DNA of 63,549 bases, counting the filler, from Reclinomonas americana ATCC 50394 (taxonomy: Eukaryota), in the NCBI GenBank assembly GCA_048213135.1. It is 21 parts of 21 records of this genome, joined end to end, with 100 filler letters (N's around TTAATTAATTAA, not from the genome) between each part and the next. Parts side by side here need not be neighbours in the genome. Positions count along the whole stretch, not along the records: positions 13,006 to 15,064 come from AFZH01022736.1; positions 15,165 to 20,620 come from AFZH01022737.1; positions 20,721 to 24,180 come from AFZH01022738.1; positions 24,281 to 28,084 come from AFZH01022739.1; positions 28,185 to 32,521 come from AFZH01022740.1; positions 32,622 to 34,072 come from AFZH01022741.1; positions 34,173 to 37,008 come from AFZH01022742.1; positions 37,109 to 40,337 come from AFZH01022743.1; 13 more parts are not named here. One strand, 5' to 3'. Position numbers and translations under genes: made by a program. Positions 13,136 to 38,713 of this stretch are shown here, piece after piece. A model generated the notes under the pieces. The model was not told the origin of the DNA and did no database searches. It saw only the letters and a program-made list of their open reading frames with translations. Within the stretch, counting starts at the first letter, position 1. The number at the start of each line of letters is the position of its first letter.

Positions 13136-13185
13136 CACTGAGAGAAGGATGAGGAGAGTGGAAAGCCGAGTGAACACGACGCAAC

Positions 13186-13477
13186 GTATCCCAGTGTCGG
13201 CTCCGCCAGCACGTCAATGTTGACAAGAGGCACATCAGCGACCTCCTCCTCTGCATCATCGTCACTCATCTCGTCAATCTCCGAAGGCAATGCCTCCTCC
13301 AGCATGTCATCAATGTCGGCGGACAGCTGCGGACCACGCATGGTCACTGCTGCTGCAGCAAGTGCCACACATAAAAGTGCAGAGAGCAACTGTGAGAGTG
13401 TGTGAGTGGAAGGGTGCAACAGAGGGGGTGAATGGGAGAGACGCAACAAATGCGATTGCCAGCGCGTTTCGTGACAT
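13186..13477 (-). CDS. Secreted protein paralogue 2, N-terminal exons only (13477-13448, 13389-13186): signal peptide plus acidic segment
   Basis: [78 protein letters not shown]; near-identical to 15872-15575 with the same intron positions. Confidence 0.75.
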
Positions 13478-13551
13478 GACGCGAGATATCAATCACGCGA
13501 GCACAAATATCTGCTCCTATCCTTCTTCATTCATTCACAAAGTCACTCGAC

Positions 13552-15872
13552 TTAAGTATTCATAATATCGTAATCGCCGTAGCGGCCGAGGCGCGCAAAC
13601 ATCGTGCGGACGTTCTTCTCGTCGCACATCTTGGCGTTGCCATTCATGCACGGAACGGCTGCCGGCCACGTGGTCGTGCCGTCGCCGGCAACGTTCAGCA
13701 GCGAGTAGAAGAGGTTGGGGTCAAAGCCGCCGACGCGGTATTCCATAAGAACACTCAAGTCGTTGTCGACCTTCATGAGGTTGACCGCCCGCGGTGCAGC
13801 GCGGAACTGATCGGCATTGGAGGCCGGGTTGGTGGGGCCGAACACCAGACGCAGCGCCTCCTTGGCGAACTTCACAGTGTTGTCGTAGGTTCCCCAGGCG
13901 GTGGGACCGGTGGAGGGGCCACAGAAGCCCTCCACGAACGCCTTCGCCACGCTGTTGCGCACGACGCGCGCCGAGTTGAACATGGAGGTGGGCTTCGTGA
14001 TGCCCGTCCAGTACGCGCCGCCAGCGTTGAACTCGGCCGGCAGAGCGGGGGCGTTGAAAATGTCACGGAAGCGACCCTTGGGCAGCAGCTTCCAGTACGA
14101 CTTGTTGTTGAGGCCGCCGAGCACGGCATCCAACTTCCAAGTGTCTGCCACCCAGGCGTTGTTGTTGGCCGGATGCTTGTGCACAGCGCGACCGAGGTGG
14201 CAAATGGCAGTTCCCAACATCAGGAAGCCGCCTTGCGCATCGAGGTTATCGGCGGCGGTCTGCGAGACCACAGGCTGCGGGTTGATGAGGACCTTGGTCT
14301 TGGCGTGTGTGCGCAAAAAGTCGCGCATGAGGTTCTGGCGACTGGTCTCGTCGGTCGTGGCAGTGCCCTGGACGCCGCGGAGGGCCAGCACAAGTGTGCC
14401 CTGCAGCCTCGTGGCCTGCGGCACAACAGTGGTGTTCTCGACGGCGATGATGATGAAACTCATGAGGACGCGCTTGGCCAGCAGCAGGTTCAGCTTGACC
14501 GGGAAGTTGATCTGCGGCGGCATGGACGAAAAAGCATTGTTGATCTCGGCAGCCGTGCGGACGACCACTGGCGTGTAGGTGACGCCGTTGAAAATGCGAT
14601 TCTCGACGAAAGTCGCGGGCTTCAACGCCAAGACGTTGGTAATCTCCATGCCAGCGTGCACCGCTGCGCAGTGGAGTGTGAACACAGACATGCCACTGTC
14701 GTGTGGTCACACTACCGGTGTACCCCACTCACCCTTCAGGCGTGCCACCTTCAAGTTGTTGTGTCCGGCTTCAGGGTCACCGGCCATCTTCGACACGGAC
14801 TGCTTCATGAAGTTGTTGATGAAACCTGTTGAGGACAGTGAGCACAGAGAGAGTTGCACGAGTCTGCAATCAGCCATCAGCATTCACCAAGCACCCGCCC
14901 AAAGTTCACATCGTCGTCAAAAGCAATCGGTCCTGAAAACACAGTGAGCGGAGGAGCGAGACAACACTGAGCAAATCTTCACTGCACCGCACTCACCAGT
15001 GACCATCTCCAGCACACAGCCGAGAGCGCCCGCGGCCGGCCAGCCCTGACCGTCACCAGGGGTCNNNNNNNNNNNNNNNNNNNNNNNNNNNNNNNNNNNN
15101 NNNNNNNNTTAATTAATTAANNNNNNNNNNNNNNNNNNNNNNNNNNNNNNNNNNNNNNNNNNNNAAAGGGGGTGGGAAAGGGAGTGGAAAAGGGAGTGGA
15201 AAAGGGAGTGGAAAAGGGAGTGGAAAAGGGCGTGTGAAAAGGGGAGAGGGGAGAAGGGAAAGGGAGGGGTGGAAGGGAGGGAGTGGGCAAGGGAGTGGGA
15301 AAGGGGAGGGAAAGGGAAGGGAAAGGGAGTGGGACAGAGAGTGGGAATGGGAGCGGGAAGAGAGTGGGAAAGGGGGTGGGAAGAGAGCGAGAGCGAAAGA
15401 AAGCGTTGCCAGGGAAGTAGAAAGTAAAACAGAGATATAGACACAAGGAGACAAAGGAGAAGCACTGAAAGAAGCAGTTGGAGAAAGAGAGCAGACACGC
15501 GACGGAGACAGTCAGAGCGAGAAAGAGAGAGAGAGCTTGCATGTTCGTGAGTGTATGCAAGTGCAGCACGCAACGTAGCCCAGTGTCGGTTCCGCCAGCA
15601 CGTCAATGTTGACAAGAGGCACATCGGCAACCTCCTGCTCTGCATCGTCGTCGCTCATCTCGTCAATCTCAGAAGGCAATGCCTCCTCCAGCAACTCCTC
15701 CAGGTCGTCAGACAGCTGCGGACCGCGCATGGTCACTGCTGCCGCAGCAAGTGCCACGCACAGCAGTGCAGAGAGCAACTGTGCAAAAGAGGGAACAAGC
15801 GTGAGCGAATAGGTCGGAAACTGAGAGGCAAACAGCGAACGAAACAAAGGCAATGGTGAGTGCTCGAGACAT
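13552..15872 (-). CDS. Secreted protein paralogue 1, function unknown; exons 15872-15846, 15778-15575, [gap], <15064-14997, 14932-14888, 14825-14733, 14663-13552
   Basis: The contig-5 exons splice in frame via GT-AG introns into a last exon of ~370 codons with strong C/G third-position bias. Linking the signal-peptide exons across the gap is inferred from order, strand and the paralogue that follows. Confidence 0.7.
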
Positions 15873-15967
15873 GAGGAAAAACTGTGGTTTGTGTTGTTAC
15901 AAAATATCTCAGATATCTAACGGCGAGCAATGTACACTGCTCGCATCTTCTTTTCTCCTCCTCCTCT

Positions 15968-37133: not shown

Positions 37134-37183
<50 letters not shown>

Positions 37184-37617
37184 TCACTCTCACTCACTCA
37201 CTCTCTGTGATTTTCTGCCCTTTTCTCACTCTCACACTCCATTTCTCCCCCTTTTCTCTCTCCCAGTCTCTCACTGACACCCTCTCACACCCTTCACACT
37301 CACTCGCACACACTTTCTCACTCTCTCCCTCACACACACAAACACACACTCTTTCATTGAAATTTCTCACTCTCACACTCACTCACCTGCACACAGCCTT
37401 CTCCCGCCACATCGCCGCCGGCTTCACCGCTGCACACTGCGAGCATCCACCTGCACCACGCGACACACCTCGACGCTGTCACACAAAACAATGTGAGATA
37501 CAAAAGATATGCCGACGTTCACTGATTTTCCGCTCTCCATCGACTCACCAGTGGCGGATCAGGCGCGTCATGGCAATCACCCTCGCCTGCACCACCTCCG
37601 CACGACGAGGATGCCAT
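34685..37617 (-). CDS. CTU2: Cytoplasmic tRNA 2-thiolation protein 2 (Ncs2), spanning the gap at 37009-37108
   Basis: N-terminal CSQC...VC; TAREDLIAALRQQLI, NATSLAIRVLASVGKGRG, VRPMREV, SIDRLTE|GFVCDLQSRFPSTV, CPLC, CYAC, acidic C-terminus. Confidence 0.85.
36848..37008. repeat. 11-bp tandem repeat (GGGGAACACAA)n in a CTU2 intron
   Basis: Direct reading, about 14 units. Confidence 0.95.
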
Positions 37618-37957
37618 AAAGGGGAAATGGAGAGTGTCCTTTGCGTCCTCGTGTCCCGAGCAACAACGTTCACGGCGTTCCACTCTGTGGGCGTATGAAT
37701 GACGGATCAGGTGCGTCATGGCAATCGCCTTCACCTGCACCACCTCCGCACGATGAGGCTGGCATTGGAAGGGGGAATAGAGGGTGTCCTCTGTGTCCTT
37801 GTGTCCCGAGCAACAACGTTCACGGCTTGCTCTTCCGCCGACTTTTAAAGACGGATCGTGCGTATCATGGCAATCGCCCTTGCCTACATTGCCTCCGCAC
37901 GATGAAGAAGCCGAGGAGTGAGGAAATCTAGAGTGTCCTTTGTGTCCTTGTGTCCCA
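37553..37957. repeat. Three ~149-bp tandem units covering the CTU2 first exon and its upstream sequence
   Basis: cggatc...catggcaatc...cctccgcacga...gtgtcct...gtgtccc at ~37555, ~37703 and ~37852. Confidence 0.85.
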
Positions 37958-38018
37958 TGCGACCTTTTTCACTTTTTCCAAGTTCTTTGTGAGAGAGTGA
38001 GTGAGAGTGTGTGATAAG

Positions 38019-38713
38019 ATGGATGTGCCTCCTGCTGCGTTGAAGCCGCTGCTTCCGTTTCTCAAGTGCAGTGAGGAGTTGGCGGAGAAGCACCCGCTCA
38101 TTGCTTATTATTGTTGAGTGTTTTGTGGAGGAGGAAGAGGAAGCAGAGAGAGAGAGAGAGAGAGAGAGCGAAGAGAGGAGAACTCTGTCTGTGTGTTACT
38201 GTGTGAGAGAGAGTGAGTGAGGATTCGATGTGTGCATTGTGATTACTGTGTTCTCCTGTGCATTGTTGTCTCGTTCTTCGCTCTCTCTCACTGCGAGATT
38301 GAGGACTCACAGTGAGCGAGACTCTGTTCTTCTTGTCCTTTCTCTCTCTCCCTGTCTCTTTCTCTTGTTCCTCCTCTGTCTTTTTCTCTCACTTTCTTTT
38401 CCCCTCCTCTCTCTCTCGCCACCCTTTCTCTGCTTCCCTCTCGTGGTTGACTGCTGTCCGCACACACGGAGCAAGCTCTGTTCTTCTCTTCTCTTTCTCT
38501 CTTTGTCTTCTCCCACTCTCTCTCCCTTTCCTCCGCTCTTTTCCTGCTTCTTGTGAGGGGCTTCTTCCTGAGCACACTGAGCAAGACTCTGTTCTTCTTG
38601 TCCTTCTCTCTCTCTTCCCGTCTCTCTCTCTCCGCTGTCCCTCTGTCAATCTCTGTTTCTCCCTGCATCCCTCCCGGTCTCTCTTTCTCTCCCTGTCTTT
38701 CTTGTTTCTTTAC

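Follow-up and report, generated by a model that had tools for sequence, protein, structure and literature searches.

Sequence evidence for a second class of 5' splice sites, following exons that do not end in G, in Reclinomonas americana

The stretch of DNA analysed here (the window) comprises 63,549 bases from the genome assembly of Reclinomonas americana ATCC 50394 (GCA_048213135.1), and consists of 21 short contigs joined at 20 places by linkers of the form N44-TTAATTAATTAA-N44 (for example at 3395-3494 and 20621-20720). Contigs up to position 46722 have a G+C content of about 55% and carry intron-rich eukaryotic genes, including an ACS gene, a kinesin gene and a VTA1 gene, and it is the 5' splice sites (donors) of these genes that form our subject. 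On the evidence of their sequences, a second 5' splice-site class, H/GUUGCGU (where H is A, C or U and the slash marks the junction), exists alongside the ordinary G/GU(G)AGU and is complementary to it; we refer to its members as shifted donors. Contig ends are CT/GA-rich or microsatellite sequence and often fall inside long introns, so that several introns lack one end. The ACS gene spans two linkers, and the contigs must therefore be ordered.

We curated 37 intron starts between positions 1 and 46722, the eukaryotic part of the window. Gapless homology or a protein profile fixes thirteen of them (eight in ACS, four in kinesin and one in VTA1). The other 24 were placed by reading frames, motifs or paralogues, and belong to the variable stretch of ACS, two tandem paralogues (B and C), gene A, a kinase-RING gene, a CTU2-like gene, a Zn-cluster-like gene and an unnamed gene at 41-43 kb. 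The counts exclude a second VTA1 donor near 39552, a stretch of the kinase gene with likely micro-exons (30080-29860), a gene at 15968-17303 represented by a gene-finder model only, the WD40 genes at 1-9800 and a possible G/GTATGC donor at 43394. Twelve sites had been named in an earlier, sequence-only reading of the window (ten GTTGCG, GTTGAG at 38113 and GTTTCG at 15845); letters and strand were as described at all 12, and the conserved protein motifs that it had used to fix junctions (GWIT/GHSY, DTF/WQTETG, VYCR/VRP, AET/NMN and AYY/C) all mark donors fixed by homology or profile.

The ACS gene (18058-23043, minus strand) was modelled by hand as 10 exons with an open frame of 560 residues, and the model was aligned to intronless bacterial ACS proteins (four of the 120 listed matches from a one-exon query, at about 61% identity). 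Seven junctions, at 21225, 20283, 20093, 19906, 19106, 18850 and 18533, lie inside gapless blocks, and the high-scoring segment pairs (HSPs) of an unguided tblastn search break at the same bases. Shifted donors among them open the introns at 20220-20283 (T/GTTGCGA, 64 nucleotides (nt), with HSPs ending at 20284, residue 313, and resuming at 20219, residue 314), 19039-19106 (TT/GTTGCGT, 68 nt, where one HSP covers residues 394-415 up to 19106 and the following one begins with residue 416 at 19037) and 18792-18850 (T/GTTGCGT, 59 nt, following SAWP). At the last of these the HSPs end at 18852 (residue 477) and resume at 18783 (residue 481); the three residues between them agree in number and the block 374-514 is gapless. 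The intron at 21361-21422 (A/GTTGCGT, 62 nt, acceptor GTGCAG) is placed by continuity of the open reading frame (ORF) and is less firmly supported, lying in a variable stretch where alignment gaps at residues 132-135 fall 1-4 residues away from the junction at 136.3. The ordinary donors of the gene are 22704 (G/GTGAGG, placed by overlapping HSPs), 21225 and 19906 (both G/GTGAGT), 20093 (G/GTTAGT) and 18533 (G/GTGTGG), together with an exception in the variable stretch, A/GTGAGT at 21582. Two long ACS introns (one of 741 nt and another running across a linker; 19200-19900 and 20420-21220, minus strand) are full of imperfect direct repeats, each about 100 nt long, and of purine- or pyrimidine-rich low-complexity runs.

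The kinesin gene (24605-26034, minus strand) was aligned, as a spliced model, to oomycete kinesins (five of the nine homologues found). Its two shifted introns, at 25746-25821 (A/GTTGCGT, 76 nt, VYCR/VRPQNE, junction at residue 48.0) and 25058-25123 (A/GTTGCGT, 66 nt, in frame, AET/NMNRESSRSH), are gapless against all five. Reading through the second with tblastn produces an insertion of 22 residues, equal to 66 nt, at exactly that place against all three homologues shown. Ordinary donors occur at 25963 and 24604 (both G/GTGAGT), 25637 (G/GTCTCT, in gapless blocks against all five homologues) and 24905 (G/GTTTGT, gapless against four of the five, with a gap at residue 281 against P0127). Like the 66-nt intron at 25123, the 60-nt intron that begins at 25637 (25578-25637, minus strand) is in frame and free of stops, so that translation can read through either. 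In a metagenome scan aimed at close kinesin relatives and intended for comparison of orthologous introns, the one locus returned was too distant, at 37% identity.

VTA1 supplies the GTTGAG member of the class, in a 1128-nt intron at 38113-39240 on the plus strand (T/GTTGAGT, AYY/C-AQYAAERGL). The Pfam Vta1 profile is continuous across the junction: exon 1 matches positions 2-22 and the third residue of exon 2 matches position 26, with the split Cys codon and two residues between. A further VTA1 donor is required within 39545-39624 (plus strand), given that Vta1_C is encoded on the next contig (40439-40843); five GTs are candidates, among them T/GTTGAGCAT at 39552.

The remaining shifted donors come from genes placed by frames, motifs or paralogues. 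Paralogues B and C (13150-13480 and 15540-15875, minus strand) have an N-terminal exon and an identically placed intron in common, and their second exons are about 90% identical. In B the first intron (13390-13447, T/GTTGCGT, 58 nt) lies within the signal-peptide-like N-terminus and is placed by ORF continuity and by an exon that is kept and an intron that has diverged relative to C; in C the intron at the same position is 15779-15845 (T/GTTTCGT, 67 nt). A second donor, C/GTTGCGT, is found at 13179-13185 in B and 15568-15574 in C, with the acceptor past the contig end in each case, and is placed by comparison of the two paralogues, for identity between B and C collapses directly after GTT(G/T)CGT at both donors. 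In both proteins the signal-peptide-like N-terminus is followed by an acidic region, and neither has a Pfam match. The unnamed gene contributes C/GTTGCGT at 43246 (intron 42282-43246, about 965 nt, minus strand), a donor absent from the sequence-only list; an in-frame TAA lies two codons further on, long open exons flank the intron, and the donor-blind gene finder described below also calls it. Ordinary starts in this gene (41129-41948, minus strand), placed by ORF continuity, are 41948 (G/GTGCTG) and 41518 (G/GTGCGC), with a further exception, T/GTGCGT, at 41280. The weakest donor of the set is A/GTTGCGT at 28010-28016 (plus strand) in the Zn-cluster-like gene, which has no acceptor in view. 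Its Cys pattern, ACTSCRSAH-A-CCDDSRPCK, is built over the preceding G/GTTTGT intron (27909), and read-through would break the C-X2-C spacing; the pieces of this gene have no Pfam match, and no continuation was found on the next contig.

Taken together, shifted donors are a major class, accounting for 13 of the 37 (35%; 11 GTTGCG, one GTTGAG and one GTTTCG), and they are complementary to an exon-final G, both as previously proposed. After exons ending in A, C or T there are 13 GTT(G/T)(C/A)G donors and two ordinary ones; after exons ending in G there are 0 and 22, respectively (Fisher p=2.9e-8). The homology-fixed subset of 13 donors gives the same picture, with six shifted and no ordinary donors after non-G against none and seven after G (p=5.8e-4). 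Ordinary donors after a non-G base had also been reported; such exceptions exist at 21582 and 41280, although we find two and not the three claimed. The rule at the last exon base (-1) is strong because ordinary donors need a G there (22 of 24).

The two classes also differ in how tightly they are defined. In a tally of 12 shifted donors, to which 43246 had not yet been added, the motif is nearly invariant (+4 G in 11, +5 C in 11, +6 G in 12 and +7 T in 11). Ordinary donors vary (+3 G in 15 and +4 A in 14 of a 21-donor tally), and their class is strict at -1 but permissive within the intron. Five GTT donors follow G. Four of them, GTTAGT, GTTTGT (twice) and GTTGGT, retain +5 G and +6 T, the normal register, and GTTCTC at 36549 has neither.

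Apart from their starts, the shifted introns resemble their neighbours. The acceptor is CAG in all 10 complete shifted introns and in 18 of 21 ordinary ones, and median lengths are 67 and 69 nt, respectively, with 8 of the 10 shifted introns measuring 58-76 nt. A branch-like CT(C/G)A(C/T), a motif defined from these same introns, occurs 14-33 nt before the 3' end in 8 of the 10 and in 15 of the 21. When 8 of the 10 complete shifted introns are aligned, conservation is confined to the first 6-7 columns and the last 3, and mean column identity is 42%. Removal of the introns restores frame or homology, and six are exact by homology. U12-type introns, which have a (A/G)TATCCTT donor and a TCCTTAAC branch site, similarly place a second discrete and highly conserved donor word within one genome; however, both of these signals are absent here ((A/G)TATCCTT at none of the 37 donors) and the 3' signals are those of ordinary introns. 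The shared length, acceptor and branch-like motif, with no internal similarity, therefore mark these as ordinary GT-AG introns with another start, neither U12-type nor a mobile family. Judged by these features, the shifted introns are genuine U2-type GT-AG introns.

The class was also recovered by a procedure blind to it. A gene finder given nothing but GT, AG, codon usage and the base preceding AG predicted 41 introns, among which GTTGCG was the commonest donor hexamer (4 observed against 0.24 expected). All six of its GTTG(C/A)G donors follow a non-G base (p=0.027), though the one at 14107 (plus strand) is likely to be a spurious antisense prediction. When a two-component motif mixture was started from these donor-blind calls, it separated CTT/GTTGCGT from GAG/GTGAGT in its first round. 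A motif-trained gene finder mis-joined genes, skipped ACS 21422 and two kinase exons and produced antisense models; it was used for class discovery and not for counts. Two further variants were set aside, a donor-blind finder with a high intron penalty, which yielded too few introns, and a codon-score ORF filter, which was too weak.

How such donors might be recognised depends on the relation of the two motifs. The sequence-only reading described the shifted donor as an ordinary one with a single extra T. This is apt for the G and T that stand at +6/+7 in place of +5/+6, but it does not hold for the slot after the extra T, which is C at a ratio of 12:1 in shifted donors and A at 14:4 in the equivalent +4 position of ordinary donors (p=1.7e-4). 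The exon side differs as well, the -1 base of the shifted class (T6 A4 C3 G0) being unlike the -2 base of ordinary donors (A13 G5 C4 T2; p=0.013 for T, in a small sample where coding also constrains the bases). The 5' end of standard U1 is ACUUACCU. Using RNAduplex with the textbook U1 5' end AUACUUACCUG (sequence as in Tan et al. 2016, PMC4856993), a model standing in for the organism's own U1, we obtained +0.5 kcal/mol for CUU/GUUGCGUCU, with no stable duplex in any register, against -6.6 kcal/mol for CUU/GUGAGUGG, -4.6 kcal/mol for UAU/GUUGAGUGU and -11.9 kcal/mol for GAG/GUGAGUGG. The predicted preference of textbook U1, by which H/GUGAGU is good and GUUGAGU is better than GUUGCGU, is thus the reverse of observed usage, and with a Mastigamoeba-like U1 end H/GUGCGU is still preferred. 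A shifted or bulged U1 register, also put forward in the earlier reading, accordingly fits at the G and T positions but agrees poorly with the slot base, the exon side and the predicted pairing with textbook U1; these three features are better fitted by that reading's other suggestion, of variant U1 or U6 small nuclear RNAs (snRNAs) or cofactors, than by a human-style register.

Since the slot after the extra T is so consistently C, a recogniser with G at that place is argued for. We consider that a changed or additional U1-like 5' end may read the H/GUUGCGU class, a model to which we assign a probability of roughly 0.45, and favour it over a shift in the register of standard U1; the class itself stands under either. 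Exons ending in G would be anchored on both sides of the junction, such that a loose intron motif could be tolerated, whereas exons not ending in G would have only the intron side to anchor them, through seven nearly invariant bases. These seven bases, GUUGCGU, would pair with an snRNA 5' end containing ACGCAAC, belonging either to a co-evolved U1 or to a second U1-like variant that exists beside standard U1, and the cleavage site would stay fixed by GU. With a hypothetical end, AUACGCAACCUG, the predicted energies are -9.9 kcal/mol for CUU/GUUGCGUCU, -4.1 kcal/mol for CUU/GUGAGUGG and -7.8 kcal/mol for GAG/GUGAGUGG, which places the two common classes in one energy range and leaves the rare H/GUGAGU weakest.

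A number of points weigh against this proposal. A 5' end complementary to GUUGCGU is predicted to pair best of all with G/GUUGCGU (-15.2 kcal/mol), a combination seen in 0 of 22 cases; a single co-evolved U1 would therefore imply either that too-tight pairing is selected against or that two RNAs are at work. Under the single-U1 version, ordinary donors should also have C at +4, where A dominates. Duplex energies leave out U1 proteins and pseudouridines, and 24 of the 37 donors rest on ORFs and motifs rather than homology. An Rfam search of the window at gathering thresholds gave no match, hence no U1, U6 or other snRNA gene within it. In the accessible text of Roy and Bowser 2022 (bioRxiv 10.1101/2022.06.08.495308), Micromonas and Thecamonas prefer a pyrimidine at +4 with no compensating change in U1. 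Two caveats concern the class itself. The absence of G before the 13 shifted sites is weak when taken alone (about p=0.065); the base before GTTG words in general is G in only 19% of cases. Moreover, the word GTTGCGT is not over-represented in the window: it occurs 12 times where 8.7 copies are expected, and a count of 12 is reached in 19 of 100 shuffles. Ten of the 12 copies nevertheless stand at exon-intron borders (the others being in coding sequence at 5732 and antisense within an ACS intron at 19387), and it is the placement of the word that is non-random, not its abundance.

The alternative that survives best retains standard U1 and unchanged machinery, and has it pair in a non-canonical register, either shifted by one, so that intron G+1 replaces exon G-1, or with one U bulged at +2/+3. 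Its attraction is that G+6/T+7 would replace G+5/T+6, and that the first intron G could stand for the missing exon G, giving a simple reason for complementarity with -1 G; the ordinary class, moreover, makes a standard-type recogniser likely. A U1 register shifted by +1 was reportedly described at human 5' splice sites by Roca and Krainer in 2009. According to the accessible text of Tan et al. 2016 (Nucleic Acids Research, PMC4856993), both registers are experimentally proven in human cells, and the human +2/+3 single-base bulge is assigned to 68 predicted (54 curated) of 201,541 sites, against 35% of donors here. Under the bulge register G, G and U agree with ordinary +3, +5 and +6, and the middle slot is C at 12:1 where ordinary donors have A at 14:4. 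The predicted pairing of GUUGCGU to AUACUUACCUG is nil, and H/GUGAGU, which should be far better, is used in 2 of 15 cases; GUUGAGU should likewise beat GUUGCGU, yet the counts are 1 and 11. Together with the mismatch between the shifted -1 and the ordinary -2, these disagreements lead us to regard a standard-U1 register as rather unlikely, if still deserving of serious attention.

Recognition may instead be independent of U1 pairing and rely on later or other factors, such as preferences of the U6 ACAGA box or U5 loop 1, or proteins such as LUC7, SNRNP27K or a U6 methyltransferase, in which case the two classes would be an extreme form of the split between exon- and intron-anchored sites. As presented in the accessible parts of Parker et al. 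2022 (eLife, PMC9803359) and a 2025 article in Open Biology (PMC11732430), plants and humans have two major 5' splice-site classes, the exon-anchored AG//GU (U5 loop 1) and the intron-anchored //GURAG (U6 ACAGA box), and it is their hallmark that G at the last exon base and strength of the intron motif are anticorrelated. The looseness and strictness of the ordinary class here would agree with this, and in both systems exon end and intron motif compensate and two classes are separable within a genome. The plant and human classes described in those texts, however, share a common register with G at +5, whereas the intron-anchored class here is displaced by one base and has a different word. An invariant ACAGAGA box would, by our reasoning and without computation, also need a one-base bulge to reach G+6/U+7, and seven near-invariant bases look more like pairing to a fixed complement. 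We consider this explanation improbable.

Two further possibilities have very little chance of being correct. That the GTTGCGT introns are a mobile, introner-like family carrying its own 5' end and inserting after non-G bases might be suggested by that fixed end, by short uniform lengths and by a target-like bias at -1, but the eight introns aligned are alike at splice signals only, ordinary introns have the same length distribution, and the paralogue pair diverges freely inside the intron. That the class is an artefact of misplaced junctions, chance or the annotator's expectation might be argued from the lack of enrichment of the word and from the placing of 24 donors by frames and motifs with the hypothesis already known, but six shifted junctions are base-exact from alignments or a profile blind to splice motifs, donor-blind prediction recovers the class, and sliding the borders leaves the mRNA unchanged only at 20283 and 25821, where a G opens the next exon.

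A changed or second U1-like RNA would have partial precedents. The accessible text of Roy and Bowser 2022 (10.1101/2022.06.08.495308) describes GUUUGU donors in Entamoeba with a U1 end of AACAAAC, a Mastigamoeba U1 with ACGUAC, and standard and modified U1 candidates occurring together in Physarum. The Archamoebae (Entamoeba, Mastigamoeba) share with our case an atypical GUU-type donor and a fixed intron-side word for which a corresponding alteration of the U1 5' end would account. On that account, though, their atypical donor is near-universal and intron density is low, while here atypical donors are 13 of 37, genes are intron-dense, and two classes are sorted by the last exon base. The human non-canonical registers, as set out in the available part of PMC4856993, resemble the shifted class in belonging to GT-AG introns, in an intron consensus one base further from the cleavage site, in GUU starts and in a possible bulged or mismatched U. 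They differ in being rare and in matching the standard U1 complement (..AAGU), as opposed to a class of 13 in 37 with its own word, with C for A, and no exon-final G. An H/GUUGCGU donor class was not found described in the literature open without subscription, including the accessible parts of PMC7050145 and PMC1201135, and a search for the GTTGCG hexamer returned primer-type matches only.

Few features of eukaryotic gene expression are as conserved as the U1 5' end and the GURAGU donor. An intron-rich, free-living protist in which a third of the introns start at a donor displaced by one base, with a fixed word of its own, would offer a natural system in which to study U1-independent fixing of the cleavage site and co-evolution of snRNAs with splice sites, and could show whether one genome can keep two donor codes at once. 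It is tempting to speculate that two codes for intron starts run in parallel, with standard U1 serving G/GUGAGU and a dedicated second RNA, possibly a U1 paralogue, complementary to GUUGCGU and serving the other exons. We hold this bolder version to be more doubtful than a standard-U1 register, though well short of fanciful; if true, it would constitute a second 5' splice-site recognition system of the major spliceosome, in charge of about a third of all introns. In practical terms, a large share of the genes here, and perhaps in relatives, will be annotated wrongly by gene finders that have learned from ordinary donors.

The other genes of the eukaryotic part contribute ordinary donors, all on the minus strand. 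In the kinase-RING gene (29189-30760), kinase motifs and ORF continuity place 30698, 29753 and 29402 (G/GTGAGT), 30458 (G/GTGAGC), 30287 (G/GTTGGT) and 30080 (G/GTGAAA). Between 29860 and 30080 of the same gene, joining ...AALH to VIHRDLKP appears to call for one or two micro-exons, each 4-8 nt long (AATGGTGA is an example). Gene A (13552-15045) has G/GTGAGT at both 14996 and 14732, and the CTU2-like gene (34685-36670), whose last exon matches Pfam CTU2, has G/GTTCTC at 36549 and G/GTGGGA at 35970.

ARAGORN found no tRNA gene in the window. The last seven contigs (46823-63549) are of a different character, with 66-70% G+C and uninterrupted bacterial-type genes, among them a dCache-HAMP-HisKA-HATPase sensor histidine kinase, an ABC transporter permease and a PEP mutase; they probably derive from prey or contaminant bacteria assembled together with the protist.

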